A stretch of DNA of 64,000 nucleotides, taken from Thermoanaerobaculia bacterium. GTDB taxonomy: Bacteria > Acidobacteriota > Thermoanaerobaculia > JALWYX01. The stretch spans positions 60,423-124,422 of the forward strand of contig JALWYX010000034.1 of the NCBI GenBank assembly GCA_027078415.1, written 5' to 3'. The position numbers and the translations under genes are program-made. The notes below the pieces were generated by a model. The model worked only from the letters and a program-made list of their open reading frames with translations, was not told where the DNA came from and searched no databases. Shown here in pieces: positions 15,246-51,386 of this stretch. Each line of letters opens with the position of its first letter. Within the stretch, counting starts at the first letter, position 1.

Positions 15246-15321
15246 TTATACCACATCATAACATAACCTTACTTAATTCGTTTGTTTACCGTATAATAGA
15301 TTGAAAACAAGGAGAAAAAAA

Positions 15322-17094: not shown

Positions 17095-17104
17095 GGAGTA
17101 TGTT

Positions 17105-23801: not shown

Positions 23802-24429
23802 AAAAGATATTTCTATAGATCCACAAAGATTGAAAAGAGCGTATAAGGTACAAGCAAGTTTCTACGATAAAATATTTAACAGCCGTGTTTTTGTAGAGGG
23901 ACGTAAAAGGGCAATAGAACTACTAGCACCATCTAACGAGGACAGTATAATAGATGTTGGAGCAGGGACAGGGTTAAACTTGCTTTATTTTCGCAATTAT
24001 AAAAGTATAGTAGAAACAGATTTTTCCTACGAAATGTTATCTAAAGCTTACAAAAGAGCCCAGATACTCGGTATTAACGCAGAGTTTATAATAGCAGATG
24101 CGTGTGCATTACCCTTTGAAAACGGCAGTTTTGACTGTGCTATAGCAAGTTACGTAATAAGTGCAGTTCCCAAACCGATTCAAGTATTAAAAGAGATGAA
24201 ACGAGTGGTTAAAAAAGGAGGAAGAATTGTAATAATAAACCACTTTAGAAGCGAAAATAATGTAATAGCTTTTTTTGAAGATCTTGTCGAAGGTGTATGT
24301 TCCTATCTAGGGTGGAAAAGTAATCTTCCATTTGAAGAAACTATTCATAAAGCTGGGCTTATTCCCATATATACCGAAAAGGTGAATTTCCTAAACGGAT
24401 GGACGCTGGCTCTATTCATAGTAGATTAA
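23791..24429 (+). CDS. Class I SAM-dependent methyltransferase (Methyltransf_11-like)
   Basis: Motif I IDVGAGTGLN and post-I acidic residue. About 210 aa. Confidence 0.8.
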   Translation: MSSEKDISIDPQRLKRAYKVQASFYDKIFNSRVFVEGRKRAIELLAPSNEDSIIDVGAGTGLNLLYFRNYKSIVETDFSYEMLSKAYKRAQILGINAEFIIADACALPFENGSFDCAIASYVISAVPKPIQVLKEMKRVVKKGGRIVIINHFRSENNVIAFFEDLVEGVCSYLGWKSNLPFEETIHKAGLIPIYTEKVNFLNGWTLALFIVD

Positions 24430-25895
24430 TGCGCCCCTTTGCCACTTAAAATTGCCGGTACAGTCCTAATCATTATCTTCAAATCGAGCCATAAAGACCA
24501 GGAGTCTATATACTTCATATCAAGCGCCATCCACTCGTTAAAATCGAGTTCCGATCTACCGCTTACTTGCCATAAACCTGTAATACCAGGTTTCATAGAT
24601 AACCTGCGTTTTTGCCATCTCTTATACCTCTTAACCTCATCTGGAATAGGAGGACGAGGACCTACCAGAGACATGTCACCTTTCAAAACGTTCCACAATT
24701 GGGGCAACTCGTCCAAACTATAACGACGTAAAAATTTACCAATAGAAGTGACTCTAGGATCATCTTTAGCTTTAAACGCTGGACCGTTAACCGTGTTCAG
24801 ATGTCTAACTTCTTCCAACCTCTTTTCAGCATCTTCTACCATAGTTCTAAACTTATACAGAGTAAATTCTCTGCCGTTTAAACCGCATCTCCGCTGTTTA
24901 AAAAATACAGGTCCTCTAGAAGTGATTTTTATAAGAATCGCTACTGCCATTATAATAGGTGCCAACATAACCAATAACAAAATAGAAACAACTATATCTA
25001 TAACTCTTTTTAAAAATAGCTGTACAGCAGTAGCAGGAGTATTAGAAAATGTTATAACAGGTACTTGGGCAAAAGAGGAAATTTCTACCCAAGCTCTATT
25101 ATGGGGAAAAATATCTAGTGAAAATAGGGTTCTTATTCCCAACTCTTCAAGAGCAAGTATTTTATTTGCAAGTCTACCTAGTTCCTTAGCATTCACCGCA
25201 AACAACACGTCATCAACAACGTTTTCTTCCACAATCCTATTTAAATCATCTATATCTCCTAATACAGGATAACCAGCAAAAGTTCTACTCTTACTAGAAC
25301 TATTAGGAGCTAAAACTCCTACAACTTTAAACCCCCAGTGAGGATTACGTCGTAAATTTATAAGAAACTTACGCGCTGTTTCTCCTATACCAACTATTAA
25401 AATGGTTCTGTAGTTATAACCTCTACTACGTAGATAGCGCGATAGAGTACGAATAAAAAGCTTCTCTCCAGATATAAGTAAAGTGAGAAACAATATGAAC
25501 AAAGCTAACAAGCTACGAGGAAATCTATGATAAGTAAGTATCTCATCTATCCTGGAAAGAAATATTAATACACCAAAAGTTAACATCGTATAAAAACTGA
25601 TTTTTATAACAGTCTTGACCTCTTCTCTTATAGAGAGAGTTCTCCAAGACCTGTACAAACCCAACTTTATAGCATAAAAACTCCATATTATTATTAAAAT
25701 CAGAAGTAATATTAGATAATCTTTAAATTCAAGAATTGGAGTAGGAAAAGAGGAAGGGAAAAAAGCAGGTAGAAAAGAGTTTCTTATAACATAAGAGATA
25801 GCAAACGCTAAAATTAGGAAAAACAGATCTAATATATAGAAAGCAATAGTAATAATTTTTCCTTGTTCTTTAAGCATTTGTACACAATTTAACAA
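24426..25895 (-). CDS. Polyprenyl-phosphate sugar phosphotransferase (WbaP / exopolysaccharide priming glycosylphosphotransferase family)
   Basis: Four to five N-terminal TM helices. C-terminal bacterial sugar transferase domain KRVIDIVVS...GPVFFKQRRCG...LDELPQLWNVLKGDMSLVGPRP. Confidence 0.85.
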   Translation of the reverse strand: MLNCVQMLKEQGKIITIAFYILDLFFLILAFAISYVIRNSFLPAFFPSSFPTPILEFKDYLILLLILIIIWSFYAIKLGLYRSWRTLSIREEVKTVIKISFYTMLTFGVLIFLSRIDEILTYHRFPRSLLALFILFLTLLISGEKLFIRTLSRYLRSRGYNYRTILIVGIGETARKFLINLRRNPHWGFKVVGVLAPNSSSKSRTFAGYPVLGDIDDLNRIVEENVVDDVLFAVNAKELGRLANKILALEELGIRTLFSLDIFPHNRAWVEISSFAQVPVITFSNTPATAVQLFLKRVIDIVVSILLLVMLAPIIMAVAILIKITSRGPVFFKQRRCGLNGREFTLYKFRTMVEDAEKRLEEVRHLNTVNGPAFKAKDDPRVTSIGKFLRRYSLDELPQLWNVLKGDMSLVGPRPPIPDEVKRYKRWQKRRLSMKPGITGLWQVSGRSELDFNEWMALDMKYIDSWSLWLDLKIMIRTVPAILSGKGAH

Positions 25896-26976
25896 ACAAA
25901 TCGGAATATAAAGTGGCGATTTTTTCCCATCTAAACAGTTTCAATGCTCTTTTTCGAGCCATTTGCCCCATTACTTCTGCCACTGAACGATTTTCATCTA
26001 TTTTATAAAACAGTTCACTCAACGAGTCAATTTTGTCAAGTTTAAAAAAAAACGCAGTATTACCAGCAGCTTCTCTATTCTCTGGAATATCGCTGAGCAA
26101 TAACGCCCTACCTGCCCCCATAGCTTCGATAACAGCAGGATGTACTCCTCCTAACTCATATGCATGTACTGTAGCCAACGCATTACACACAAGTTCTTTA
26201 TAGTACCTATCGTAAATAGCGCCTGTAAACAAAACTCTGTCATCCGCTAAACTTTTTACGTACTCTTTGTACTTCGAAGCGTAAGGTGCATCACCAACTA
26301 ATACTAAAGGAATATTACCTCTATACTCACGATAAGCCGATACAACAAAATCCGCATTGTTTTCCGGTTCCAGCCTAGCTACATATAGGAAATAGTTATT
26401 TTTTTTTAATCCATAACTAGCCAACATTTTTCCAGGCGGCGTATAGTCAAAATCAGCACCGTAATAAATCACTTCAGCCTGCACGTCAAATTGCTCCAAC
26501 CAACGTGCATTGTAAGTAGAATCTGTTACAACCTTATCTGCTAGTTTACAACCTAAAGGTACAGATGCCTTATGAATACTCCTTCCAACAAAACCCCATT
26601 TCCTACGCATATACTCTCTACCATCCACATGAAGAACAACCGGAATTTTATAAACAGATATAAGAGGAATAACAAAAGAGTTTGCTGAATTTACCAAAAA
26701 AACTATATCAGGTTTTACTAGAGGAAGATGTATAGTTGATAACAAAGTATGAAAGGGTGTATCTAAATATTTATTACGAATCGTCGGAAGCCATATTATA
26801 GACGCACCCTTGTAAAACCTAGGAGTTCTGTGAAAAAAATAGTTTCTGGAATAGACGTAAACGGAAAATTGTCCTTTAGAAAGAATAGGTACTATATTAT
26901 CGATCAAAGTTTCATAACCCCCATATCTAGCTGGGATTCCTCTAGAACCTAAAATAGCTAACGAATACTTCTTCAT
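25870..26976 (-). CDS. Glycosyltransferase family 4 (GT-B fold)
   Basis: N-terminus LAILGSRGIPARYGGYETL (DUF1972-like GT4 N-domain). C-terminal GGVHPAVIEAMGAGRALL E-x7-E motif. The start is set at the MKKYS Met because the longer form overlaps the divergent GT2 gene. Confidence 0.7.
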   Translation of the reverse strand: MKKYSLAILGSRGIPARYGGYETLIDNIVPILSKGQFSVYVYSRNYFFHRTPRFYKGASIIWLPTIRNKYLDTPFHTLLSTIHLPLVKPDIVFLVNSANSFVIPLISVYKIPVVLHVDGREYMRRKWGFVGRSIHKASVPLGCKLADKVVTDSTYNARWLEQFDVQAEVIYYGADFDYTPPGKMLASYGLKKNNYFLYVARLEPENNADFVVSAYREYRGNIPLVLVGDAPYASKYKEYVKSLADDRVLFTGAIYDRYYKELVCNALATVHAYELGGVHPAVIEAMGAGRALLLSDIPENREAAGNTAFFFKLDKIDSLSELFYKIDENRSVAEVMGQMARKRALKLFRWEKIATLYSDLFVKLCTNA

Positions 26977-27010
26977 TTTCACCGGGTGAAGTAATATTAT
27001 AGCTAAATCT

Positions 27011-27916
27011 ATGATGAGTAAATCCGAGAAGATAACAGTAGTTATCATATATTACGGAAAAGCTAAACAACTAGAAGAAAACTTAAAAAAATGGAATACA
27101 TCAGATCAATTAGAAATATATTTAATAGACAATCTCGGTGATCTCAGAAACAGGTATAATAAACTGCCCGATACAATAACCATAATTGCTCCACCCTATA
27201 ACCTGGGATTTGCCGGTTCTATAAATCTAGTAACTTCAATAGCAAAAAACAACAACATATTAGTAGCAAACAGCGATGTTTACCCACTTGATAGGACAAC
27301 AATCACCTATTTGTCAAAAGCGTTTAAAATCTATCCAGATGCGGATATAGTAGTACCTAAATTACTGTTTCCCAGTCTAAAAGAGCAAACAGGTTGGCAA
27401 ATAAAAAAAGGATTAAACTTCCTACACCTCCTCTCGTTTCTCTTCTTTTTCGATACGCGTAAAAGTACTTATCCTCTTGCCGGTAAAATATACTCTCAAC
27501 CCGCAGGAGCTGCTCTCCTTTTCAAAAGGTCCGCTCTTGAAAAATTGGGAGGACTTGATGCGACATTCTATCCAGCTTGGTTTGAAGACGTAGATCTATA
27601 TATCCGTAGTTGTAAAAAACAGATAAATATCGTATACTACCCCTACTCTATTTTTATACATAAACTAGGTGAATCAATAGATACAATAGGATTTAAAACT
27701 TTTACTTACACATTTATGATCAACTTTTTCAGATTGATCAAAAAATTTTATCCTAAATACTCTCTACTTTTAGCAATTTTACTTCCGATAGCAATGCTAA
27801 TACGTGCCGCTATTGCCTTAATATATCTCCCTAAGAAAGCCAAAAACGTAAAAGAAGCTGTAACAACGTTTCTTAAAGTACCTATTAAAGTATGGAAAGA
27901 GATTATTCTGTCGTAA
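27011..27916 (+). CDS. Glycosyltransferase family 2
   Basis: ITVVIIYYG...D-rich GT2 N-domain, with C-terminal TM helices. Confidence 0.6.
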   Translation: MMSKSEKITVVIIYYGKAKQLEENLKKWNTSDQLEIYLIDNLGDLRNRYNKLPDTITIIAPPYNLGFAGSINLVTSIAKNNNILVANSDVYPLDRTTITYLSKAFKIYPDADIVVPKLLFPSLKEQTGWQIKKGLNFLHLLSFLFFFDTRKSTYPLAGKIYSQPAGAALLFKRSALEKLGGLDATFYPAWFEDVDLYIRSCKKQINIVYYPYSIFIHKLGESIDTIGFKTFTYTFMINFFRLIKKFYPKYSLLLAILLPIAMLIRAAIALIYLPKKAKNVKEAVTTFLKVPIKVWKEIILS

Positions 27917-28863
27917 TAGTTACCCACAATTCAGCTCCAGATATTGCTAAAGCTCTACAACATCTATATTCGCAAACTCTAAAGCCCAAAACTACTGTAA
28001 TTGTGGATTCGGGCAGTAAAGATAACACTATACCTATTGTGAAAACTCTTCAATATACCAACTTGAAGGTAATAGAACTACAGAATAATGTAGGTTTTGC
28101 TTCGGCACTTAATATAGGAATAGAAAATACAGATTCTCCATGGATACTTTCTTTGAATCCTGATACTCGTATGGAGATACTATACAGCGAGAATATACTA
28201 AATGCGCTTAGCTATTATAGATACGACAGAATCGCATCTGGTACTGGTAGACTAGTTAGATTGGAACAAACCAACATCTTAGACTCTTGCGGAATATACA
28301 TAAATCCAACTTGGCGTCACTTCGACAGAGGTAGCAATAAGGTTATATCTCACTCTTATATACAACCTGGATTTGTATTCGGTGCCACTGGTGCAGCCAG
28401 TTTTTACAATAGAGAAGCGTTAGAAGACGTACAGCTTGAAAAGAGTAAATTTGACCCTTTGTTTCATTCATACAGAGAAGACGCTGAAATAGCCTTTAGG
28501 TTGCAACAGAGAGGGTGGAAAACTGTATATATTCCCTACGCTGTATGTTACCACCGCAGGCAAGTACTACCTGAAAAAAGATCTAAATTATCAAAACATA
28601 TAAACTATCACTCCTTAAAAAACAGGTACCTTCTACGCTTATATCACCAAACCTTTACAAACCTGATTTTAACTTTGCCTATAATCTTACCGCGTGAAAT
28701 AGGGATTGTACTATATTTAATATTCAAAGAGCGCAACAGCTTAAAAGCTTATAGATGGTTATGGAACAACAGAAAGTTGATAATAGAGAGAAGAAAAGAG
28801 ATAAAGAGCAAAAAGCTAATTTCCTTTAACAAATGGTTTTTCAGACGCATATTACCTACTTAA
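27892..28863 (+). CDS. Glycosyltransferase family 2
   Basis: YSVVIVTHNSAPDI...VIVDSGSKDNT...DxD-type region. Confidence 0.75.
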   Translation: MERDYSVVIVTHNSAPDIAKALQHLYSQTLKPKTTVIVDSGSKDNTIPIVKTLQYTNLKVIELQNNVGFASALNIGIENTDSPWILSLNPDTRMEILYSENILNALSYYRYDRIASGTGRLVRLEQTNILDSCGIYINPTWRHFDRGSNKVISHSYIQPGFVFGATGAASFYNREALEDVQLEKSKFDPLFHSYREDAEIAFRLQQRGWKTVYIPYAVCYHRRQVLPEKRSKLSKHINYHSLKNRYLLRLYHQTFTNLILTLPIILPREIGIVLYLIFKERNSLKAYRWLWNNRKLIIERRKEIKSKKLISFNKWFFRRILPT

Positions 28864-30198
28864 AACATTGCTATTAACAACTCTTTTCTTAAAATTGTTA
28901 TTTATTGCAGTCTGCTTATTAAGATTTTCAAACATTTCGTTACACTTAGAAGAAAGCACTTCACACAAGTTTCTATTCTCATCAAAATCGTTTCTCAAAT
29001 CGTAAAGTTCCTTCTCTAAACCACCTATAAATTTCCAGTTTCCTACAATCAGAGAAGCACTATAGTTACTTACGCTTCTAGACTCTGCTAATATAAAACG
29101 ATCACTATCAGAAAAACTTACAATAGTTGGGATTAAAGAGATTCCTTGAAAAACTATCTCTTTTTTATCTATTCCTAAAATATCTAACAAAGTAGGTGTA
29201 ACATCTATAAGAGAAACATTTGTAGGTATCTTTTTAGTTCCAACTTTAGGTATATAGATAAACAGAGGAACATGTAACGTTTCATTGTAAAGTTGAGAAT
29301 GTAAAAAGTTACCATGTTCACCAAATTCTTCACCATGGTCCGAAGTAAAAACTACTACCGTTTTAGGAAATTTATCGATAACTTCTTTAAGTAAAGGCGC
29401 AATTTTCTCAAGGGTATATCTGACTAGAGCATCGTATAAAGAAATAAGTCTGCGTACATCAAGTTCGTTAGACAGATTAAATTGGTTCCAAAACCTATCT
29501 CGTATCTCAGGAAAACTGATAATCGATGAATTCAATTTTCTGAATTCTTTCCAGCTTACCACGAAATTGTTTTTATCTTTCCAAAAGATATCTAACCCAT
29601 CCTCCGGTAAAAGGTAAGGATCGTGCGGACCGTAAGTATGGAAAAAAAGAAAAAAAGGTTCCTTTGCATCGTTTAACCATGCTAAAGCTTCTTTTACATA
29701 ACCCCATCTATCGTAACGTTTAGAAGGTTGTCCTTTATTCAGATAAAAGTCAAAACCTCTGTTAAAGCCAAAAATGCCTGATACGTTTCCTCCGCCGTGA
29801 AATCCTACCGTAGTATACCCTGCATCTTTAAGTATCTCTGCTATAGTGGGTAGGTTACCGTTTATAACTGTTTGTTTACGAAAGTAACGTGTTATATTTC
29901 TAACTCCATGTATTTCAGGATAAACACCTGTAAACAAAGACGCGTGGGAAGGAGCTGTAAAGGGTGATGGTGCAAAAGCTCTTTCGAAAATTACACTTTT
30001 TTTTACAAAAAAATCTATCACAGAAGAAGTATCTCTAAAGTAGCCATATTGCGACATATGCTTCGCTGCAAGGGTATCTACAGATACTATAACTACATTG
30101 CATCTTCTACATTCTATTTCCTCGGAACTTCTACAATTCCACAAAAGAAAACTAAAGATAACCAAGAACTTCCAGCTCTTTTTTAAGATCATCGTCAA
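28852..30198 (-). CDS. Sulfatase-family (alkaline-phosphatase superfamily) lipoprotein S1, non-canonical nucleophile
   Basis: VIVSVDTLAAKH metal-site motif. FTAPSHASLFTGVYPEIHG in place of CxPxRxxxLxTGxYPxxHG. TSDHGEEFGEHG metal motif. Signal peptide. Confidence 0.75.
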   Translation of the reverse strand: MTMILKKSWKFLVIFSFLLWNCRSSEEIECRRCNVVIVSVDTLAAKHMSQYGYFRDTSSVIDFFVKKSVIFERAFAPSPFTAPSHASLFTGVYPEIHGVRNITRYFRKQTVINGNLPTIAEILKDAGYTTVGFHGGGNVSGIFGFNRGFDFYLNKGQPSKRYDRWGYVKEALAWLNDAKEPFFLFFHTYGPHDPYLLPEDGLDIFWKDKNNFVVSWKEFRKLNSSIISFPEIRDRFWNQFNLSNELDVRRLISLYDALVRYTLEKIAPLLKEVIDKFPKTVVVFTSDHGEEFGEHGNFLHSQLYNETLHVPLFIYIPKVGTKKIPTNVSLIDVTPTLLDILGIDKKEIVFQGISLIPTIVSFSDSDRFILAESRSVSNYSASLIVGNWKFIGGLEKELYDLRNDFDENRNLCEVLSSKCNEMFENLNKQTAINNNFKKRVVNSNVLSR

Positions 30199-31588
30199 TC
30201 TCTAAAACTTTTCCTTTACCACCACCGCTAACGCTACTCAATATCTCTTTTAGCATCTCTTGCAGTAAATCAACAATCCCCGGGTGTATAGAACTTACAT
30301 CTTTTTTTTCTTTAGGGTCGGTTTTTAGGTTGAAAAGTAGGCGTTTATCCTCACCCCTAAGGATAAACTTAAACAAGCTTTTGTCCACTACAGCTACAGA
30401 ATCTGGACCGTAAGCAGGTGATTCTATGAAGACTAACTCTTTTTTTTCGCAAAACCCCTCCTCTAAAAAATTCGCACCTCTCCATCTACCAACTTTAGGC
30501 AGGTTCAAAATTGCGGCCAATGTAGGCATTATATCTATGTGACTTACTATGCAGTTTACATTTCTTCTGTTTATACCTTTCCCACCAATCACTATAACAC
30601 TACGGACAAGCTCTTCGAACATAGTATGCCCGTGACCTATACCGTAAATATTCCGCGGATCGTCTTTCCAACGCCACTGTAGATCTACATGATCCCAAAA
30701 TTCTTCTCCATGGTCTGTAGTAATTAAAAAGATAAAATTATCAGCTATTTTACTTCTCAAAAATAGGAAGAGACGCCTTATTTCACTGTCTACATACCTA
30801 AGTGTAGCATCGTAAAGCTTTATTTTATTACTCTTGTATTCGATAAACTCTTGGTCCGCAAAGTTAAAAATCTCACCAAACCTCCAACCAGCATACTTTT
30901 TGGCGTCATCTATTGCAAAAAGCTTCACAAACTCCTGAGGTGGTTCCAAAGGATGGTGTGGATCCATATACTGAATGTACAGGAAAAACGGTTGCTCAAC
31001 CTTATCAACAGCATCTATAGCAAGATCTGTGAGTTTCCTAGCGGAGACTCTTTTAGAAAAGTGAAAATCCGTAGCAGGAGCAAAATTTTTATTCAAATAG
31101 GGATTAGCGGAAAAAAATAGTGAACTGTAACCGTATTTTTTAAAATACTCGGTTGCTAAAACCACCTCTTCCAAAGGTTGTCTACTCTTATCTTTTATAC
31201 CCAACCAGCGCATCTTCCCTCTCTCACCAACACCTGCTCCATGTTCCGAAGGATACAGAGAAGATAGTATAGAAGCAACAGACGGAACTGTCCAATTAGA
31301 ATGGGAATATACACGTTCAACTATCACAGAATTGGCGGCGATAAAATCTATATTGGGAGTCGTATCTCTCATATAGCCCATAAAAGAAAAATGATCGTAC
31401 CTAGCAGTATCTATTACAACAACTATTACATTTGAAGGTCCCTCTTTCTCTTTACTACTTTCGGAGGGTTTGTGGCAGGATAGTAAAAAAAATGGAAAAA
31501 ATAAATAGAAAAGGAGGTGGAAAAATCCACCTCCTTTCCTAAGAACTTTTCTAGATCTTTTACGGCATTCTATAAGCCTCAAATTCAT
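30152..31588 (-). CDS. Sulfatase-family lipoprotein S2, non-canonical nucleophile
   Basis: Lipobox LLSC. VVVIDTARYDHF. WTVPSVASILSSLYPSEHG. TTDHGEEFWDH. C-terminal tail ...LKKELEVLGYL. Confidence 0.75.
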   Translation of the reverse strand: MNLRLIECRKRSRKVLRKGGGFFHLLFYLFFPFFLLSCHKPSESSKEKEGPSNVIVVVIDTARYDHFSFMGYMRDTTPNIDFIAANSVIVERVYSHSNWTVPSVASILSSLYPSEHGAGVGERGKMRWLGIKDKSRQPLEEVVLATEYFKKYGYSSLFFSANPYLNKNFAPATDFHFSKRVSARKLTDLAIDAVDKVEQPFFLYIQYMDPHHPLEPPQEFVKLFAIDDAKKYAGWRFGEIFNFADQEFIEYKSNKIKLYDATLRYVDSEIRRLFLFLRSKIADNFIFLITTDHGEEFWDHVDLQWRWKDDPRNIYGIGHGHTMFEELVRSVIVIGGKGINRRNVNCIVSHIDIMPTLAAILNLPKVGRWRGANFLEEGFCEKKELVFIESPAYGPDSVAVVDKSLFKFILRGEDKRLLFNLKTDPKEKKDVSSIHPGIVDLLQEMLKEILSSVSGGGKGKVLEIDDDLKKELEVLGYL

Positions 31589-32201
31589 CCAGATAGTACG
31601 TTACAGCTCCATTGACCTGTGCTGCTGGATTTTGTACAAGGCCAAATCTAAAGTAATCTATGTCGAATGCGCTCGTTGCTAAATTGTTTTTACAAACCTC
31701 TTTATAACTTGGGGTAAGCCTACGCACACATACAAATCCATCTCCATTTCCAGCTCTCCACTCTACTTCAAGCTGATGAGTCTTTGGTGAATTATCAAAA
31801 GACAACCAAACACCACCTACAAAAGTAAAATTACCACTATTCTGTCTAGCCCAAACGTTAAATCTATACGTTCTGTCACCGTCATTTTCTAGATCATGCC
31901 TAAGAAAACCCACTAAAAATACAGCAGGTGCTACATCACGTGCAAAATAAAGTATTCTTAAAGAGCTATCATCTTTTATATTAGTAGCATTTTCAGCACG
32001 TAACATAAATCTAACCTTTACGTGCGTTTCGTTGTTAGGAGCATTTGTTTCCACATACGCTTTATCAGAGGAAGTCCCATCCAGATTAATCTCCAAACCA
32101 TAATTGCCTTCCAACGCAGAGGTATTCGTAACACTTAAAGTGTTTTGCGCCCCTAGAGGCAAAGTAAACAACGCTATCATACCTCCTACCTTTTTCCACA
32201 T
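31560..32201 (-). CDS. Hypothetical secreted protein embedded in the hydrolase cluster
   Basis: Signal peptide MIALFTLPLGAQN. Beta-rich composition. No motif recognised. Confidence 0.5.
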   Translation of the reverse strand: MWKKVGGMIALFTLPLGAQNTLSVTNTSALEGNYGLEINLDGTSSDKAYVETNAPNNETHVKVRFMLRAENATNIKDDSSLRILYFARDVAPAVFLVGFLRHDLENDGDRTYRFNVWARQNSGNFTFVGGVWLSFDNSPKTHQLEVEWRAGNGDGFVCVRRLTPSYKEVCKNNLATSAFDIDYFRFGLVQNPAAQVNGAVTYYLDEFEAYRMP

Positions 32202-32266
32202 AACCTTACTTACCTCCTCTTTTTAGGTACTTTCACATTATAATACATAACTCTTCACCAGCGCAA

Positions 32267-33658
32267 TTAAGAATGCTCGTCTAATATCTTATCTGCTTTG
32301 TTTATAGCTTCTTTTAACTCCTCACTTTTCAAAGACGCTTCTTTCTTAATAATCTCTAGAAGATCTTTTTTAAGAGAATCTATAATACCTTTTCTATCCT
32401 CCAACGTAACCGATCTATCCAACTTGTAGAGATTACTCTTACCAGAAGAGAACGAAAAACTTAGGAAAAAAGGCAAATTAATTATAACAAACCTATCAAA
32501 TAGAGTGGAATCATATTCAATACCAACGACTTTTCGTGCAGCAAAAGCTGAAAGTGCACTTCGTTCATCCCTTAAAAGTGGAAGGAAACTTTTTCCATCT
32601 ATATCGGAAAATAGATCTACTCCTAAATAATCTTCTATAAAAGCGGCAATATCTGCATGAGACACCAGAGCATCTACTTTTTTACCCTTAAATTCAGCGT
32701 TTGGGAACCTTATAACCAAAGGAATTTTAGCAACAGACGGAGACAATTGATAATGACTTAAACTTCCGTACTCACCAAACTCTTCCCCATAATCGGCTGT
32801 AAAAATAACAACAAATTTCTCTAACCAACCATCTTCCCTCAACCACCCAAAAAAATCTCCCAATCTCTTATCTAAATAGTCCACCTGGGCCTTGTAAACA
32901 GTTTTCAGAGCAGCAAGAGCATCTTTAGAAAGTTTTCTTGTCCTGTAAAATTGAAGCCATTTATCCGCACACATACCTTTGAAACAAAACATATCCTCTT
33001 TGATTTTCAATTTCTCCTTTAACGATGGAGGTAAAAAATAAGGTAATTTATTACCATTAGCTGGCGGATCAGGAGCGAGATCACTAATTTGCATAAATAT
33101 GAACAAAGGATCGCTTCTATTTTCATGGAAATCGATTATCCTGACAGTTCTATCAACTATTGAGTCCACATGTATAAACTCACGTTCAGAATCCCTGTAA
33201 ACCGTAAAACCACCTATAAGACCAGATTCTGGACTCAAAAAAGGAGTCGAATAAAAACCGACTGTTTTATACTGAAGATCTAAAAGTTTATGAAAAAACT
33301 GTCTCACATAATTGTTCGATCCCTCAGGAATAGAATTTATAATGCCATGGCGCAAAGGACTAAGTCCAGTAAATAAAGTTACATGTACAGGTAAAACATG
33401 ATTAATTTGAGTATAGAAGTTAGTAAACTCCACACCTTCACTAACCAAAGACTTATATACAAAAGTATTCTTGGCATAATCGAAACTGAACGAGCTAACA
33501 GAAATAAGCAATATATTAGGGTACTCTTCTACTTTTCCAAAAACGTCTAATGATGAAGGAATTACAGTAGATGAACTATTTTCCTTGCTATCTTGGGGAA
33601 AAATGTTACAACCGCTCAAAAATATTAAACTAATGAGAAATAAGCCTTTCAATTTCAT
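32267..33658 (-). CDS. Sulfatase-family lipoprotein S3 with degenerate active site (probable pseudo-enzyme)
   Basis: Lipobox LSGC. Metal motifs degraded (ISVSSFSFD instead of DTxRxD; TADYGEEFGEYG instead of DHGEEFGEHG). Val at the nucleophile position (HVLPVHVTLFTG). Confidence 0.65.
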   Translation of the reverse strand: MKLKGLFLISLIFLSGCNIFPQDSKENSSSTVIPSSLDVFGKVEEYPNILLISVSSFSFDYAKNTFVYKSLVSEGVEFTNFYTQINHVLPVHVTLFTGLSPLRHGIINSIPEGSNNYVRQFFHKLLDLQYKTVGFYSTPFLSPESGLIGGFTVYRDSEREFIHVDSIVDRTVRIIDFHENRSDPLFIFMQISDLAPDPPANGNKLPYFLPPSLKEKLKIKEDMFCFKGMCADKWLQFYRTRKLSKDALAALKTVYKAQVDYLDKRLGDFFGWLREDGWLEKFVVIFTADYGEEFGEYGSLSHYQLSPSVAKIPLVIRFPNAEFKGKKVDALVSHADIAAFIEDYLGVDLFSDIDGKSFLPLLRDERSALSAFAARKVVGIEYDSTLFDRFVIINLPFFLSFSFSSGKSNLYKLDRSVTLEDRKGIIDSLKKDLLEIIKKEASLKSEELKEAINKADKILDEHS

Positions 33659-35099
33659 TTATAAAACACTCCACCCCCAATCCTTTATCGGTGACATCTA
33701 GTAGTACTTCTTGTAAAGTTGCAGCTCCTCGAGAATGAACCTTTTTCCTTAGCCAATCGAGCAGAACGGAAAACTTTCCCTCCTGAAAAGTTTCTTCCAA
33801 ATCGGTTATTTCTTTACGAGCCTGATTATAAAACTGAGCAGCGGACAAAGATCCTAGGGTGTATGTAGGAAAGTAACCAAACAAACCTGCAGCCCAATGA
33901 ATATCCTGTAATACCCCTTCACTTACGTTCCCGGGAACAACACCAACTATCTCTTTGTATAGTTCATTCCATCGCGTAGGTAATTCTTTTACTGTCAAAT
34001 TTTCGTTTATAAGCTCTTTTTCCAGGAGATAACGAACAAAAACGTGTAAATTGTAACTTACAATATCAGCTTCCACTCTTATAAGAGAACGTTTAATCTG
34101 ATTTACATACTTAACCCATTCTTCTATTCCTCCTTCCAGAAAAGGAAAAAGTTCTTTTAATTTATAGAATCCCCAACTCCAGAATTCTTTTCGTCTTCCC
34201 ACGAAATTTTCCCATAGTCTAGACTGTGACTCATGTAATCCTAAAGATATAATCTTACCCAAGGGAGTATAAAACAGAGACTCATCTATGCCCAGCTCGT
34301 ATAAGGCATGTCCAGCTTCGTGTAAAACACCAAATACTGATGACCTGAAATCGTTTTTCCTGTATCTAAAAGTTATACGAACATCGCAAGGGGTAACCGC
34401 TATACACATAGGATGAGTAGATAAATCTAATCTGCTGTCTGTCTCTAATCTTAAGCCAACAGCGCTAGCAAAAAAGGCAGCTGCCTCCCATTGCTTATCT
34501 GGAGAATATTCAAAAACAGAATATTTATCTGAAGCAAAATTAGTTTCATATTTATCAAGCAAACTGTAAGTCTTGGGAATAAGTCTTTCAAAGACTGAAT
34601 CTATAACCTTTTCTGTAATTCCAGGCTCAAATAAATTAAGCAGAGCTTCGTATAAAGAAGTATCATCTTGTTTAAGACAACTAGCTTCCTCTTTTTTAAG
34701 TTTCAGTAAATTGTCTAGCTCTTTTTCAAAAATAGAAAAATCGCCTTCTTTTCTTGCTAATTTCCAAGCTTCTACGGCTAAAGTGGTAGAATAGGCTAAC
34801 GATGTACGTACTTTAGCAGGAACCTTAAAATATCTATCAACCACAATACGAGCCACTCGAGCATGCCTAGCAAACTCTTTACCTTCTTCCTCTATACTGT
34901 CCAAAAGTTCAACAAAATAAGGATCTGTCACAAGCGTATACAAAACACTGTTTAAATGTGCAATTATTTCTGCACGTTGGGAAACAGCTCCTTTAGGCAT
35001 ATATGTCTCTTGATCCCACGCAAAAAGTGCTAGAGCAGATTCTAAAGAGGATATCTTTTTCCACCTTCTAAAGAACTCTTCTCTTAACTCTTTTGTCAT
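33630..35099 (-). CDS. M32 family carboxypeptidase (carboxypeptidase Taq-like)
   Basis: HEAGHALYE zinc motif and full-length M32 architecture. HESQS and IRVEAD family motifs. Confidence 0.9.
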   Translation of the reverse strand: MTKELREEFFRRWKKISSLESALALFAWDQETYMPKGAVSQRAEIIAHLNSVLYTLVTDPYFVELLDSIEEEGKEFARHARVARIVVDRYFKVPAKVRTSLAYSTTLAVEAWKLARKEGDFSIFEKELDNLLKLKKEEASCLKQDDTSLYEALLNLFEPGITEKVIDSVFERLIPKTYSLLDKYETNFASDKYSVFEYSPDKQWEAAAFFASAVGLRLETDSRLDLSTHPMCIAVTPCDVRITFRYRKNDFRSSVFGVLHEAGHALYELGIDESLFYTPLGKIISLGLHESQSRLWENFVGRRKEFWSWGFYKLKELFPFLEGGIEEWVKYVNQIKRSLIRVEADIVSYNLHVFVRYLLEKELINENLTVKELPTRWNELYKEIVGVVPGNVSEGVLQDIHWAAGLFGYFPTYTLGSLSAAQFYNQARKEITDLEETFQEGKFSVLLDWLRKKVHSRGAATLQEVLLDVTDKGLGVECFINEIERLISH

Positions 35100-36488
35100 T
35101 TACAAATACCCCAAGGCTTTTAACTCTTCTTCTACATCTCTATCGAAAGAGTAAAATCTAGCTCTAGGCCAAGCACCATAAATTCTGTCTCTTTTTATCA
35201 TAAGTCTAATAAGTTCTTCTTTTACAGAATTTTTCAACATAGCAGCGTTTCTCTTATCTATCTCGGCAATGTCATGCAACTCCTTAGGATCCTTCATAAG
35301 GTTAAATACCTTAACCCTATCAGTCCTAGGATCGTATTTAACAGAGTAAGGAAAATCTATTATAAAAAAACTCCACCTGTTGTATACATGGGCAGTACCT
35401 ACAATTTTCCTTTTAACCTGATTTTTACTGAGAAGTGAAAATAGAGAAAGTCCATCAAAGGCAACCGGGTATTGCAAACCTAAATAATCTAAGAAAGTAG
35501 GAACTATATCAGGTAGCCAAACCGGTGTATCTACTATCTTAGGAGCATCGTTGTCAGGAGTTATAAGCATCATGGGTATAGCTATTGTTTCGATGAATGG
35601 TTGTGAATGACCAAAATATTTATGTTCCTTAAACTCCTCACCATGATCCGAAAAGATAATAATTATAGAGTTTGAGAATAGATTCCATTTCTCAAACAAA
35701 TCGAAAAGCTTCGCTAACTGGCTGTCAAGAAAGCGTACACCTCTTCTATAGATTTCTTCCACCAATTCAACCTTTTCCGGTTTAAGTGGAATAGCTTCTT
35801 CCCTTACAAGCCGTAACCAGCTATCAGCACATCTGTTGTACCTACAAAAGGTACCTTCTTTTATAGGTAGATCCTTTCTATATGAAGGAGGAGAGTAGTA
35901 AGGTAACGTGTTCCCGTCTCTTCCTTGAGGATCAGAATGAGCATCCATAAAATGGATAAAGGCAAAGAAAGGAACTTTTTCCTCAACTGCTGCTCCCAGA
36001 TAATTGGAAACCTCCTCTAATATAGCTTCCGAAGGAACAAGTTTAAACCGTATTGGAATAAAAACGTCAAATCCTTTGTGGAATCCACCTTCTCGACCCA
36101 AAAGAGCATTAGAATGTATAGCAATGGTTGTGTAACCTTTACTTTTTAAAATTTCAGCTATAGTAGGTATGGAAGGCGGTAAAGCTCCAACTTTTACTTC
36201 CAATATAGAATGTACAATCGAAGACATACCAGTAAAAGCAGACATATGCGAAGGAACCGAGTAATGAGCTGTTGAGAATGCATTCCTGAAAACTATCCCT
36301 TTACGTTCCTCAAAAATTCTCTTTATATTGGGCATATCCAAACGAGGACTCCCTACAAGCTCACCCCAGCAATCACGCCTTACAGTATCCAAAGATATCA
36401 ATATAACGTTCTTCTTTATCTCAGACCTACATCCAAATAACAAAACCAAAAATAACAAAACCACTTTCCTTCTCATCACGCGATCCAA
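35100..36488 (-). CDS. Sulfatase-family lipoprotein S4, non-canonical nucleophile
   Basis: Lipobox LLFGC. ILISLDTVRRD. YSVPSHMSAFTG. FSDHGEEFKEH. C-terminal tail ...EEELKALGYL. Confidence 0.75.
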   Translation of the reverse strand: MDRVMRRKVVLLFLVLLFGCRSEIKKNVILISLDTVRRDCWGELVGSPRLDMPNIKRIFEERKGIVFRNAFSTAHYSVPSHMSAFTGMSSIVHSILEVKVGALPPSIPTIAEILKSKGYTTIAIHSNALLGREGGFHKGFDVFIPIRFKLVPSEAILEEVSNYLGAAVEEKVPFFAFIHFMDAHSDPQGRDGNTLPYYSPPSYRKDLPIKEGTFCRYNRCADSWLRLVREEAIPLKPEKVELVEEIYRRGVRFLDSQLAKLFDLFEKWNLFSNSIIIIFSDHGEEFKEHKYFGHSQPFIETIAIPMMLITPDNDAPKIVDTPVWLPDIVPTFLDYLGLQYPVAFDGLSLFSLLSKNQVKRKIVGTAHVYNRWSFFIIDFPYSVKYDPRTDRVKVFNLMKDPKELHDIAEIDKRNAAMLKNSVKEELIRLMIKRDRIYGAWPRARFYSFDRDVEEELKALGYL

Positions 36489-36712
36489 AAAATATTACTA
36501 CAACACCAAATACCCGGCAACCAAGTAAGTATTAAAGGCAATTATAATTCTAAAACCGGATTTTAAAAATAAGCTTCGCTTACCAATACAACTAAAAAAC
36601 ACGCAAGATGACTTAAAAACAATAATAATGGTACACTTAAAAATCAAAATAGAGCAATTATTTGCCCTATCTTAAAACATTCTAAATATCCCTTCCCAGT
36701 ATTAGCCAACAG

Positions 36713-38161
36713 TTATTTATATCCTAACGCCTCTATAGCTCTCTTTTCCATCCTATCCAGTTCATCCAAAAATTGAGGTTCAGTGACAGCAAGTAACTTT
36801 TTACGCTTCTCTAGTTTAACACTTATCTCAAGATCCAATCTTTTTTTCAAGTTATCAAGCAAATCCTTAAAAGATTTGTCGCTAGCCAAATTATTCTGTT
36901 CCATTCTATCGCTACTCAAGTCAAAAAGTTCTACCAACCCATCATCTTTAATAATCAGATGATAAGGATAAACAATCATAGATCTAAAGTTCAAATTTTC
37001 CTTTTTATGTCCTAGAATAGCAACATCGCGTTTGGGCGTTATACTCTCTATCCAAGGTATCAAACTTTCCCCATCCAACTTTAGGGGAAAATCGTATGTA
37101 ATATTTAGGTAATCCAATATGGTAGGCAAAATATCTTCATGCCCTACAGGTATCTCTATCACCTTTCCTGCCCATCTATTTTTAGGAAACTTTATCAAAA
37201 GAGGAACATGAATATTTTCTACGTAAGGTCTATTGTGTAAAAAAGAACCGTGCTCACCAAACTCTTCACCGTGATCGGCTGTTATTATTACAAACATATC
37301 ATCCAATAAACCTTCAGCATTCAAATATCCAAACAGATCTCCTAACCTCTCGTCTAAATAAACAGCTTGCGCTTCGTATAAACGTTTCATTTTTACAACA
37401 GTACTTTTAGGCAACTTAATGCCTTTTTTTACAACTTCTAACAACCATCTACTAGCACACAGCTCTTTCCAACAAAACTCGGACCTATCAACTTTTATAT
37501 CTTTTCTGTAGGGAAAATAAGAATAATAGGGCAGAAAATTTTCAACTCCCACCATATCTTTATCGAAATCTGAGTGCAGATCCATATAATGTGCAAAAAT
37601 AAATAGTGGACTATCTCCGTACCCCAACCGTGATCTTTCAGATAGAAGATAGGAGATAGAATCGTTTATTCTTTGAGCAAAAGTAAGTCCTCTACCTATA
37701 TCCATGTAAAAGTCAAATCCCTTAGCAAAACCATATCTAGGTCTTAGAAAATAGTTGTGGTAAAACCCAAATGTCCTATAACCGTGTGTTTTCAAAATTT
37801 GAGCGATAGTTGGTATATTTTGCAACAAAGCAGGACCTCGCTCAGCATAAATAACTCCATGAACATAAAAAGACAACCCTGTAAACATGGACATATGAGT
37901 TGGAAGTGTAAAACCTGTAGCAGCATAGACGTTTAAAAAATTTACACTCATATTACTGATATCTTGCAATCTAGGCATAAGAGAATTATCACGGAAAAAA
38001 TGCCACAGATCGGCTCTCATCGTATCTATGGAGATAAACAGAATATCGGGGAGTTTTCCACGAGTACTCTCTATCTCTTCTAATTGTTGCTCATTCATAT
38101 GCTCCGCAAAACATCCGTAAAAAAGAACCACAAAAACTAACAAACACCTCCGAACTCTCAT
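36713..38161 (-). CDS. Sulfatase-family lipoprotein S5, non-canonical nucleophile
   Basis: Lipobox LFYGC. LFISIDTMRAD. FTLPTHMSMFTG. TADHGEEFGEHG. C-terminal tail ...AIEALGYK. Confidence 0.75.
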   Translation of the reverse strand: MRVRRCLLVFVVLFYGCFAEHMNEQQLEEIESTRGKLPDILFISIDTMRADLWHFFRDNSLMPRLQDISNMSVNFLNVYAATGFTLPTHMSMFTGLSFYVHGVIYAERGPALLQNIPTIAQILKTHGYRTFGFYHNYFLRPRYGFAKGFDFYMDIGRGLTFAQRINDSISYLLSERSRLGYGDSPLFIFAHYMDLHSDFDKDMVGVENFLPYYSYFPYRKDIKVDRSEFCWKELCASRWLLEVVKKGIKLPKSTVVKMKRLYEAQAVYLDERLGDLFGYLNAEGLLDDMFVIITADHGEEFGEHGSFLHNRPYVENIHVPLLIKFPKNRWAGKVIEIPVGHEDILPTILDYLNITYDFPLKLDGESLIPWIESITPKRDVAILGHKKENLNFRSMIVYPYHLIIKDDGLVELFDLSSDRMEQNNLASDKSFKDLLDNLKKRLDLEISVKLEKRKKLLAVTEPQFLDELDRMEKRAIEALGYK

Positions 38162-38502: not shown

Positions 38503-39816
38503 TCACTCTTTCAACGTAGCAGCAGTGTAAACAACCGTAGCGTAGAAAGCGGTTATATTTTGTAAGTTTTCTTGTTGTACTTTATCAAAAGTATCATTTT
38601 CGGTATGGTGATAATCGAAATAGAAAGTTGAGTCAGGTGTTATATCAATAAATTGAACACCTCTATCTCTAAAGAAGGATATATCTGCACCACCTCTTCC
38701 TTTCTCTTCAACCCATTTTACGTTGTATCTTTTAAGAATACGTCTTATAGACTTTAGCACCTTACCTACTAAGCCTTTTTTTTCACCTCTTATTTTAAAT
38801 ACTTTCCCCAATCCAAAATCAGCTTCAAGAGCTAAGATATGAGGATCATCCTTGTGCCTATCAAAGTAATCGCGAGCCCCATCCAACCCAAATTCTTCGT
38901 TGTTAAAAAGCACGAATCTAACGGTCCTATTTAGTGAATAATTAGCAATATAACACGCAGTAGCCAAAACTGTTGCTACTCCTATACCATCATCTATAGC
39001 TCCTTCTCCCACATCCCAAGAGTCTAAATGAGCACCCAACAAAATAATCTCTCTACTTTTCCCTTCTATCTCTCCTAGCACATTGTAAGCAGTTACAGGA
39101 GCAAGTTGCCGTGAAGAGGAAAATATTTTTACACGCGGTATACTATCTTTCAACCTTCTTAGAAGATCTGCGTCAGCAGGTGCAAGTGCTATTGCAGGTA
39201 ATCCGTCTGAATAACTAATTGCAGTTATACCTGTATGTGGAAAACGATCATAACCGGTACCTGCTGACCTCATAAGATAGGCTATAGCGCCTTTTTCCAA
39301 AGCTATTTTTGGCCCCAGCCATCTCGTGCGAGAACCTTCCCTATAATCGGCACCGTTTCTTTTTCTTCTCATAACAAAATCTACAAAAACTATCTTTCCC
39401 GATATAGCATGCTCGGGAGCCTCTTTTAGCTTTTCCAAAGAGTCAAAATAGACCACCTCACCTTCTATACCTTCTTTTGGGGTACCACTACTACCTCCCA
39501 ATTCTATAGCTATAAGTTTTCTTTCAACCGGAGCTATTAGAGCAACTTCTAGTTTTCCCCTTACCCATCGTGGAGCTATAAAATCTTCTTTCCAAACTTT
39601 TACTCCACAATCTTTAAAGACCTTTTCAGCCCATAAAACAGCTTCTACATTCCCTTGGCTTCCAATGAATCTAGGGCCTATCCTTGTCAATTGCTCAAGG
39701 AAAATGAAAGATTTGTTGTCATTTACAACTGTGTAGAAAAATTTCTCTATCTCTTTTTGCAAACCATATACGTTAAATGATAAAAATAAGATAAAAGCTA
39801 AAAAAAACGCTCGCAT
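38503..39816 (-). CDS. M28 family peptidase (second copy, with PA-like insert)
   Basis: GAHLDSWDVGEGAIDDGIGVA and NNEEFGLDGA M28 motifs. Start set at the MRAFFLAFILFLS signal-peptide Met; the ORF-track start at 39879 would overlap the divergent gene. Confidence 0.75.
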   Translation of the reverse strand: MRAFFLAFILFLSFNVYGLQKEIEKFFYTVVNDNKSFIFLEQLTRIGPRFIGSQGNVEAVLWAEKVFKDCGVKVWKEDFIAPRWVRGKLEVALIAPVERKLIAIELGGSSGTPKEGIEGEVVYFDSLEKLKEAPEHAISGKIVFVDFVMRRKRNGADYREGSRTRWLGPKIALEKGAIAYLMRSAGTGYDRFPHTGITAISYSDGLPAIALAPADADLLRRLKDSIPRVKIFSSSRQLAPVTAYNVLGEIEGKSREIILLGAHLDSWDVGEGAIDDGIGVATVLATACYIANYSLNRTVRFVLFNNEEFGLDGARDYFDRHKDDPHILALEADFGLGKVFKIRGEKKGLVGKVLKSIRRILKRYNVKWVEEKGRGGADISFFRDRGVQFIDITPDSTFYFDYHHTENDTFDKVQQENLQNITAFYATVVYTAATLKE

Positions 39817-39840
39817 TTTCTCAATTATAGGTGATAAACG

Positions 39841-40959
39841 ATGATAGAAAAAGTGGAAAAAGTGCTCGAAGAACTTCAAAAAATAGCTTTAGAAAAAATA
39901 AAAATCTTAGGTAAACCGATACCCAAAGGCGAACTATTTCTCACATTAAATATTGCACTTTCAGGATCACGTGAACACCTTCACAACGAAGCAATCAACT
40001 TAACAAAAATTATAGACGCTGAGATAAACGATCTTATAGCACATATGGAAATGCTTCCTGTGGGTAGGATACACTGCTTGAAGTGTAACACAGCCACCTG
40101 TGAACACTCTGCACCTACTAAAAGAAGAGAAGTGTTTGTAGGATATAAACCCAATGGTACTCCAGAGTTTAGAGACCTCACCCAAGCACTCCTAGATAAA
40201 GGGCATCCGCAGACCCACAGACTATTTGAAAAAAAACCACCTATTTTGGCTCTTGCTATAAAACCACAAAATTTATTCTCAAACTTGCTACCGGGCTTTA
40301 AACCGTGGGAATCTATGAGAATACACGGTGCTGTTATATGTGGATGGTTCATAGACAAAGAAGGAGAGAAAAACGGGATTACTTTCCTGCTGGTTTCCTC
40401 AGGTACCAAAAGATCGAGAAGAAAATTTTACTTGCATACTATAAACCTCCTAGCAGCAAAAGCGGAGTTAGATAAGTTGTTGCTTACAAACGGCACTTTC
40501 AGATGGGACCAACCTCTTCAATGGAGTAAGAAAATGTTAAAAATCATAGAAGCTGATCTAAGAAGCAATACTCTAACCAAAGCTTTTATCAAAAAGATCG
40601 AAGCTAGACTGAACGGTGTTCTTGACAACTTAGCGTTACGGTTAGAAAAAATAACTGAGAAGGAAACACATTATACAAAACATGCAGTAGAACGCAAATC
40701 GGCTAACAGACCTGTATCCCAAGCATTTTTGGACCTCAAAAGTGCAACTGTCGACTGGAGTTTCTACGATGATACTGAGAAAAGCATAGTAATAGTAGGA
40801 CCTAAGTCGAGAGTACACATATTTTCTCCCAACGGTAAACTGATAACTTCAATACGATACTCATCTGAAGCTATTCAGAGAAAGATAAGAAGCGGAAAAT
40901 GGCAAAGGATTTCTCTACAACAACTGAACGAATTAAAGAAAAATGCAATTAGGAATTAA
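39841..40959 (+). CDS. Hypothetical protein translationally coupled to a UbiB/ABC1 kinase
   Basis: 372-aa ORF with no recognised motif apart from a C-x2-C-x4-C-x-H cluster. TAATG overlap with the next gene. Confidence 0.5.
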   Translation: MIEKVEKVLEELQKIALEKIKILGKPIPKGELFLTLNIALSGSREHLHNEAINLTKIIDAEINDLIAHMEMLPVGRIHCLKCNTATCEHSAPTKRREVFVGYKPNGTPEFRDLTQALLDKGHPQTHRLFEKKPPILALAIKPQNLFSNLLPGFKPWESMRIHGAVICGWFIDKEGEKNGITFLLVSSGTKRSRRKFYLHTINLLAAKAELDKLLLTNGTFRWDQPLQWSKKMLKIIEADLRSNTLTKAFIKKIEARLNGVLDNLALRLEKITEKETHYTKHAVERKSANRPVSQAFLDLKSATVDWSFYDDTEKSIVIVGPKSRVHIFSPNGKLITSIRYSSEAIQRKIRSGKWQRISLQQLNELKKNAIRN

Positions 40960-51343: not shown

Positions 51344-51386
51344 GTAAGCAAAAGAAACGTTAGGAAAAAGGAGAAAAATAAACAAA

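Follow-up and report, generated by a model that had tools for sequence, protein, structure and literature searches.

Sulfatase-like lipoproteins of a Thermoanaerobaculia bacterium as candidate threonine/serine-nucleophile phosphoesterases or phosphotransferases

The window analyzed here is a 64,000-nt stretch of DNA from a Thermoanaerobaculia bacterium (Acidobacteriota; GenBank assembly GCA_027078415.1, contig JALWYX010000034.1, positions 60,423 to 124,422 of the forward strand). Within window positions 28852–38161 lies an array of five minus-strand open reading frames (ORFs), S1 to S5, which an earlier note on this DNA had described as paralogous sulfatase-family lipoproteins with both the formylglycine Cys and the signature Arg replaced. 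All five lipoprotein-type ORFs are present, and hidden Markov model (HMM) searches matched each of them to PF00884 over the whole profile. S1 (28852–30198; 448 aa, or 446 aa in the public gene call, which starts from Met3) gave an E-value of 7e-43 and S2 (30152–31588; 478 aa) one of 6e-37. The values for S3 (32267–33658; 463 aa), S4 (35100–36488; 462 aa) and S5 (36713–38161; 482 aa) were 8e-18, 1.5e-35 and 1.8e-32, respectively, that of S3 being the weakest of the five. S1, S2 and S5 are Thr-type at the nucleophile position and S4 is Ser-type; S2 belongs to a distinct conserved subfamily, and S3 is a degenerate paralogue. At each N-terminus, a basic n-region is followed by a hydrophobic stretch and then by a Cys (LWNC, LLSC, LSGC, LFGC, FYGC), an arrangement that fits lipoproteins.

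In both sequence and predicted fold, the clade to which these proteins belong lies nearest to the formylglycine sulfatases and to phosphonate monoester hydrolases (PMHs). PF00884 and SGSH_C together describe the sulfatase alpha/beta fold with its C-terminal subdomain, and SGSH_C was matched by four of the five, S2 being the exception. A clade profile built from 123 sequences matched solved sulfatases of SulfAtlas family S1 and PMHs over their full length, with E-values of 1e-78 to 1e-43. The structure predicted for S5, the protein that we modeled, had a pLDDT of 92 and a pTM of 0.90. In a clade-placement comparison, whose figures carry no label, the SulfAtlas S1 sulfatases stood at 37–31, followed by PbgA/YejM (32.7), VP1736 (30.5), LtaP (29.7), LtaS (27.8), EptC (27.4), EptA (24.9), MCR-1 (24.4), NPP (24.2), BcsG (23.0), PafA (22.3) and GacH (19.9). 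When the PDB was searched with the N-terminal 119 residues, the only near matches were sulfatases of the Cys/Ser...Arg kind. NPPs appeared at E ~0.15, with weak matches to Xanthomonas NPP and ENPP1 (E ~0.15–0.25), and there is no solved structure for any member of this Thr-type clade.

Other family models were matched in part or below threshold. In NCBIfam, the matches to sulfatase, PehA, EptA/MCR, LtaS and YejM models were all below threshold. For phosphoethanolamine (pEtN) transferases, the best bit scores were 29–33 against cutoffs of 500–660, so none of the five qualifies as an equivalog. The earlier note had proposed weighing PF00884 against PF01663, the NPP catalytic domain. PF00884 was matched at full length, whereas the PF01663 match was limited to profile positions ~1–72 of 342, around the nucleophile (E 1e-7 to 1e-10), and in none of S1–S5 did it span the domain. 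These partial matches stem from the nucleophile segment, for which the clade consensus is TLPSHxSMxTGLYPxxHGV. The likeness to NPPs is local to this segment; the consensus resembles the NPP motif TFPNH...TGLYP..HGI.

We located the formylglycine site by alignment to solved sulfatases. It reads TAPSH in S1, TVPSV in S2, VLPVH in S3, SVPSH in S4 and TLPTH in S5, exactly as the earlier note had it, with T/T/V/S/T in place of Cys. In phmmer alignments against solved structures, choline sulfatase SPLCAPARASFMAG pairs with S1 SPFTAPSHASLFTG, which sets C-A-P-A-R opposite T-A-P-S-H. Alignment of the clade profile to 7oz8 similarly placed Thr opposite the formylglycine Ser/Cys and His opposite the Arg. 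The signature Arg is indeed gone, yet it has not merely been lost: a conserved His (Val in S2) holds its position. A check by alignment, also suggested earlier, thus found Thr/Ser at the formylglycine position with no Arg, and none of the five has the (C/S)-x-(P/A)-x-R motif of maturation and catalysis. True sulfatases, by comparison, use Cys (79%) or Ser (21%) as their nucleophile and have an Arg (Arg55) that is 99% conserved (PMC5066984). Oxidation of Thr would yield a ketone rather than formylglycine (PMC5066984), which bears out the statement that Thr is not convertible.

Further sulfate-binding residues are replaced as well. In the 7oz8 alignment, the Lys/His pair of the sulfatase 'GKMH' falls opposite 'ggwl', and the Lys of 'GDHYHWRK' falls opposite H309 (residue numbering follows S5 throughout); 'PHSPY' (H196) and 'SDHG' (D296/H297) are retained. 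By profile alignment, S1–S5 therefore have neither the Lys/His pair that binds sulfate nor the second Lys, residues numbered K113/H115/K375 in PAS. Their counterparts in EfAS are K110/H112/K324 (PMC12421950). As the earlier note had also said, no maturase gene is visible in the window. Scans of window ORFs of at least 120 aa (most of them; the few unscanned ones mostly overlap longer genes) turned up neither FGE (PF03781) nor any radical-SAM family, and no CxxxCxxC motif occurs in any window ORF of at least 100 aa. Nor was an FGE or anSME gene found in the 10 kb past the right end of the window, for a total of ~74 kb of genome covered.

The residues that the clade does carry correspond to those of pEtN transferases. 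Comparison with E. coli K-12 EptA by hhalign gave a probability of 97.7% and an E-value of 1.4e-12. In this alignment, 'ISIDTMRAD' pairs with 'IVGETSRAE', which puts D46 on Glu, and T85 falls on the catalytic Thr of 'GTAT'. 'HYMDLHS' pairs with 'HTIGSHG', with H191/H196 on 'LHTIGSHGP', and DHGEEFGEHGSFLHN pairs with DHGESLGENGIYLHG, with D296/H297 on DH and H309 on 'YLHG'. In MCR-1, E246, T285, D465 and H466 bind Zn1, and in LptA the residues that correspond to H395 and H478 hold the second zinc (PMC5031297). The alignment thus assigns to the clade a Thr nucleophile, the Glu/Asp, Asp and His ligands of Zn1, and two second-zinc His. Because these positions match the metal and nucleophile residues of MCR-1/LptA, the clade can be described as a pEtN-transferase catalytic set on a sulfatase body. 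The residues that bind sulfate (Cys, Arg, Lys/His and Lys) are gone, and a Thr / H-x4-H / DH / His set has been gained. These predicted placements are in line with the Thr/Ser-nucleophile phosphoesterase or phosphotransferase reading offered in the earlier note.

This pattern extends across about 385 homologues, which share the residue set D46-T85-H89-H101-H191-H196-D296-H297-H304-H309. In a first set of 268 domain matches aligned to the clade HMM, position 85 was Thr in 243 of 249 aligned residues (Cys in 3, Ser in 2, Val in 1), and H196, D296, H297 and H309 were each ~99% conserved. Position 89 was more variable, with His in 186 cases, Val in 24 and Phe in 13. At least 265 proteins of a larger set of 387 carried the complete D-T-H-H-H-H-D-H-H-H signature. 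The Cys/Arg/Lys pattern of sulfatases was seen in 1 of the 387 only, the product of an unrelated neighbor gene at one related locus (L047).

The five proteins differ among themselves. S1 and S5 have the full catalytic set. S4 has Ser at position 85, with its remaining conserved His and Asp residues intact. In S2, H89 is replaced by Val and H191 by Gln, and an insertion follows DHGEEFWDH. This combination is a conserved subtype, recognized with clear score margins at five other loci (L002, L012, L084, L087 and L088). S3 lacks the clade signature, with substitutions D46S, T85V, H191Q, H196A, H297Y and H304Y. It is the sole degenerate member among the 387 homologues, yet it keeps the fold and the lipoprotein signal; S3 is probably an inactive pseudoenzyme retained within an enzyme array, a point that the earlier note had missed. 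Retention of the two metal motifs, claimed there for all five, held only in part. DTxRxD is intact in S2, S4 and S5, but reads DTLAAK in S1 and SSFSFD in S3. DHGEEFGEHG is intact in S1 and S5, altered in S4 (DHGEEFKEH) and S2 (DHGEEFWDH), and degenerate in S3 (DYGEEFGEYG).

Three of the proteins also share a short motif, L-x-x-LGY-[LIVK], at the extreme C-terminus: S2 (30152–30166; LGYL), S4 (35100–35114; LGYL) and S5 (36713–36727; LGYK). S1 and S3 lack this tail, although most S1-type orthologues carry one. It was found in 81 of 131 sulfatase-like ORFs of related loci and in 101 of 122 database matches, versus only ~11 of ~5,700 other ORFs. In the clade alignment, conservation of its Gly and Tyr is at least 90%, on par with that of the catalytic residues. 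The tail also ends nearby PF01663 proteins, both in the window (52502–54046, '...LKSLGYLP') and at L016, L021, L029 and L076. It could be an oligomerization, docking or sorting signal; a PDB search gave no match to the tail itself.

The description of the array as five tandem copies needs qualification. The genes are paralogues, but they are not contiguous. ORF213 (31560–32201, minus strand), which encodes a secreted 213-aa protein with no Pfam family, lies between S3 and S2, and a minus-strand M32 peptidase (carboxypeptidase Taq) gene (33630–35099) lies between S4 and S3. The M32 gene has a zero gap to S4 and overlaps S3 by 29 nt; it was not seen in related clusters with tabulated gene calls. 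Intergenic gaps from S4 to S1 range from –47 to +65 nt, with 224 nt before S4 and 341 nt before S5, and an M28 peptidase gene (38503–39879) lies upstream of the array. Because pairwise identity among S1–S5 is only 24–34%, they are an ancient set of paralogues. Nearer relatives of individual copies exist elsewhere (up to 42% identity for S1 and up to 38% for S5). Recent tandem duplication was rejected on the same identities and because every copy has closer relatives in other phyla.

Promoter and terminator scans of the DNA were at chance level (33 found versus 37.7 expected, and 10 versus 8.0), and only one hairpin stood out. This terminator-like element (31506–31541, minus strand) has a 16-bp stem with 7 G-C pairs, contains AAGGAGGTG and is followed by the T-run TTTATTTTTT. 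It lies 15–20 nt past the ORF213 stop, within the part of S2 that codes for the signal peptide, and there is no alternative in-frame S2 start downstream of it. It may be an attenuator or partial terminator that divides the array into an upstream and a downstream half.

Beyond S1 lie polysaccharide-synthesis genes that adjoin the array: a Bac_transf initiating transferase gene (24426–25895, minus strand), a glycosyltransferase family 4 (GT4) gene with DUF1972 (25870–27048, minus strand), and two plus-strand GT2 genes (27011–27916 and 27892–28863). The last of these is convergent with S1, with a 12-nt overlap. The link to polysaccharide genes noted earlier goes beyond this adjacency, since S1-type orthologues elsewhere also adjoin GT4/GT2 genes. 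At L045, an S1-type gene stands beside GT4 and GT2 genes whose products are 39% and 41.5% identical to those of the window, and at L049 beside a GT4 gene 44% identical to its window counterpart. GT4/GT2 fusions and methyltransferase genes neighbor the S1-type genes of L083, L084 and L085, and a PMT_2 GT-C gene and a GT4 gene that of L087. Overall, the link was seen in about 7–8 of the 10 S1-type loci examined. No neighbor was universal over the related loci, and the synteny signal emerged only when S1-type orthologues were followed.

The clade is large. Of 8000 candidates scored, 3016 proteins matched S5 at E ≤ 1e-3, and an S1 search at the same threshold found 5187. A scan of one genome per species located DHGE[EH]Fx[ED]H at 594 or more loci, and the best 80 of these, all in metagenome-assembled genomes, were taken as the related loci. 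The genome that carries the window was not among these 80, for which the best identity was 34%. Their hosts include Acidobacteriota (with Aminicenantes, Thermoanaerobaculia and Holophagales), Planctomycetota, Myxococcota and delta-proteobacteria, as well as Calditrichaceae, Gemmatimonadota, Spirochaetales and two archaeal bins. Source databases name the homologues 'sulfatase', 'arylsulfatase A-like enzyme', 'choline-sulfatase' or 'sulfatase-like hydrolase/transferase'. Genes of the S1, S2 and S5/S4 types occur together in L084 (Acidobacteriota, GCA_039028635.1), L002, L012 and L087, and L088 has S2- and S5-type genes plus two that are weakly S1-like. Each of these five loci holds 4–5 paralogues within ~15 kb.

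ORF213 travels with the paralogues. S1 orthologues with 36–42% identity adjoin ORF213-like genes as well as GT genes, and at six loci (L002, L012, L083, L084, L085 and L087) the ORF213-like gene is directly upstream of the S1-type gene. An HMM trained on 8 members found homologues in 9 other loci, each of which also holds sulfatase-like genes. Two of the loci it found lay outside the training set (L087 at 8e-43 and L088 at 2e-39). The family comprises 225 representative clusters at E ≤ 1e-3, mostly of 200–240 aa; its termini are conserved, with a C-terminal 'Y.DEF.S.R' motif. Members stand alone beside S1-type genes or form a domain in secreted proteins of up to 5213 aa, the large ones carrying polysaccharide-lyase (PF14099), CBM_4_9, PA14, Laminin_G_3, Big_9, Ig, RHS or subtilase domains. 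The secreted ORF213 protein is predicted to be all-beta. A weak PF14099 match in 3 of 45 members (best E 0.004) hints at a carbohydrate-binding or lyase-like beta-sandwich, which we treat as a lead only. A word-indexed search for homologues returned nothing but ORF213, the AF2 single-sequence model was poor (pLDDT 42), and the ORF213 profile had no sequence match in the PDB.

Other parts of the window hold related enzymes and peptide-processing genes. Three minus-strand NPP-type (PF01663) genes lie at 47424–49346, 49343–51667 and 52502–54046 (E 3e-35, 3e-31 and 3e-23), which brings the alkaline phosphatase superfamily to eight members within 25 kb. NPP-type homologues also neighbor sulfatase-like genes in L016, L021, L029, L058 and L076. 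In addition to the M32 gene and the M28 gene upstream of the array, the window has a second M28 gene (1114–2778), an M16 pair (15301–18568) and an OPT oligopeptide transporter gene (8126–9835); at L088, a reprolysin-type protease lies beside the paralogue array. The sole RNA family found in the window is a selenocysteine tRNA gene (10745–10836, minus strand; Rfam 77 bits, ARAGORN anticodon TCA). The window lineage appears to be without close sequenced relatives. Among ten housekeeping proteins (NDK, SucC, SucD, RelA/SpoT, TrkA and others), nine fell in singleton clusters at 90% identity and the tenth was absent from the collection. Window G+C is ~36%, and the best S1/S5 relatives are 38–42% identical. 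The window sequence itself is also present in sample SRR14510437, in ENA ERZ23491050 and on an NCBI contig of 150,440 bp.

S1, S2, S4 and S5 are best read as membrane-tethered, periplasm-facing metalloenzymes of the alkaline phosphatase superfamily. They would join a formylglycine-sulfatase body, C-terminal subdomain included, to an active site suited to phosphoryl transfer. On balance, we think it probable that they are metal-dependent phosphoesterases or phosphotransferases with a Thr or Ser nucleophile, acting on an envelope glycoconjugate. In the mechanism we propose by analogy, a metal held by D46, T85, D296 and H297 would lower the hydroxyl pKa of Thr85, or of the Ser that S4 has instead. 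The resulting alkoxide would attack a phosphate ester to give a covalent phospho-enzyme, and a second metal, or the leaving group, would be bound by H196 and H309 with the aid of H191. The intermediate would then be resolved by water or by an acceptor hydroxyl. S3 would probably serve as a non-catalytic partner. Because the paralogue set travels with an ORF213-like protein and with GT4/GT2/GT-C and methyltransferase genes, the substrate may be a phosphorylated envelope or extracellular glycoconjugate made by the neighboring GT genes. The enzymes could strip off substituents joined by a phosphodiester or shift them elsewhere, or they could free a phospho-linked glycan.

Which reaction is the likelier can be judged from domain architecture. 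EptA and LtaS have a five-helix membrane domain for transfer from lipid donors, which in the pEtN transferases is N-terminal and presents donor and acceptor. Without it, the soluble domains of the two enzymes hydrolyze substrates but cannot carry out transfer (PMC7576196). S1–S5 (448–482 aa) have no such domain, just a single signal peptide and Cys followed by the catalytic domain. For this reason, hydrolysis or glycan-to-glycan transfer would be favored over transfer from a lipid donor.

Several observations weigh against a role tied to the glycan genes, or against the catalytic assignment itself. GT4 homologues lie within 10 kb in only ~11 of the 80 related loci, a count that has no random-locus control. 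The window GT genes are convergent with S1 rather than co-transcribed with it. The M32 and M28 peptidase genes of the array are not conserved elsewhere, the three NPP-type genes are 10–15 kb off, and peptidases and NPP-type genes fit nutrient scavenging equally well. How Thr85 is placed relative to the metal ligands is drawn from alignment only, and our literature search found no paper on any soluble Thr-type clade member.

The most serious alternative, though one that we hold to be only possible, is that these proteins scavenge phosphate and nutrients as general phosphatases or phosphodiesterases, secreted or periplasmic and akin to PafA, PhoK or NPP, with no specific tie to the GT genes and with paralogues that widen the substrate range. 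The catalytic assignment would be identical. Consistent with scavenging, the window is rich in secreted hydrolases and related genes (two M28, the M16 pair, M32, the OPT transporter and the three PF01663 genes at 47424–54046), NPP-like genes neighbor five other loci, and most of the 80 related loci have no conserved neighbor. Yet the S1, S2 and S5 subtypes co-occur with the ORF213 protein across distant lineages, and homologous GT4/GT2 genes adjoin S1-type genes in several genomes. Co-occurring subtypes and GT synteny therefore argue for a dedicated system rather than redundant scavengers.

It is quite unlikely that S1, S2, S4 and S5 are binding or regulatory proteins that merely keep the sulfatase fold, as was argued for PbgA/YejM: their nucleophile and D/DH metal ligands, like those of ~99% of homologues, are as strict as in active enzymes, and even for YejM a Mg-dependent phosphatase activity has since been reported (PMC7576196). 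Genuine sulfatase activity, through an unmodified Thr/Ser or through a Ser of S4 converted by a maturase encoded elsewhere, is very improbable. In its favor, sulfatases and PMHs account for all of the closest sequences and folds, anSME can oxidize the Ser of Ser-type sulfatases, and the maturase check reached no farther than ~74 kb. Yet S4 shares the His set of its Thr-type relatives, His or Val stands in place of the nearly invariant Arg, the second Lys is replaced along with the Lys/His pair, Thr cannot yield formylglycine (PMC5066984), and no FGE or radical-SAM gene turned up in the scanned window ORFs.

That such proteins are not sulfatases would be expected by specialists, because Thr-type PF00884 non-sulfatases (LtaS, EptA, YejM) are already established (PMC5066984). 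The earlier note made too much of this point: the SulfAtlas paper had noted Thr in 30 of the 59 seed sequences of PF00884, which rules these out as sulfatases (PMC5066984), and NCBI already names some relatives 'sulfatase-like hydrolase/transferase'. What sets the clade apart is its combination of features. Relative to formylglycine sulfatases and PMHs, it lacks (C/S)xPxR, with Thr/Ser for the formylglycine precursor and His for Arg. It also lacks the 'GKxH' Lys/His pair, has His309 for the second sulfate-binding Lys, and has an extra conserved His191. With EptA, MCR-1 and LptA it agrees residue for residue, in [D/E]-T-x-R-A-[D/E], the Thr nucleophile, H-x4-H and DHGE..GE.G...H (roles from PMC5031297). 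LtaS/LtaP and PbgA/YejM, unlike S1–S5, have five transmembrane helices as their anchor, and they act on lipid donors or lipopolysaccharide; they lack the H-x4-H and final His of the clade, and similarity to them is weak (LtaS2, E 2.6e-6). In the literature, we found no description of a soluble or lipoprotein clade that is nearest to true sulfatases and has the pEtN-transferase residue set, nor of its fixed multi-paralogue team with the ORF213 family, nor of the shared C-terminal LGY tail.

Taken more broadly, the array, ORF213 and the GT genes might represent a single instance of an envelope system that is undescribed yet widespread in uncultured diderms (Acidobacteriota, Planctomycetota, Myxococcota and others). 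We put this forward tentatively. A fixed team of specialized Thr-nucleophile lipoproteins of the S1, S2 and S5 types, sometimes with an inactive partner, would build, decorate or trim a phosphodiester glycopolymer. This clade would also be the nearest living relative of the ancestor through which phosphoryl-transfer enzymes gave rise to the formylglycine sulfatases. If this is true, the system would be the soluble-enzyme counterpart of the LtaS / GacH / EptA logic.

The findings bear on annotation as well as on biology. Thousands of environmental proteins named 'sulfatase' or 'arylsulfatase A-like enzyme' are of the Thr type and would be miscounted in surveys of sulfated-glycan degradation. 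A sulfatase scaffold with pEtN-transferase residues offers a natural test case for the phosphate/sulfate switch of the superfamily. And the gene team, with its three orthologous enzyme types, small secreted protein and glycosyltransferases, provides a handle on an envelope-glycan pathway in little-cultured phyla.

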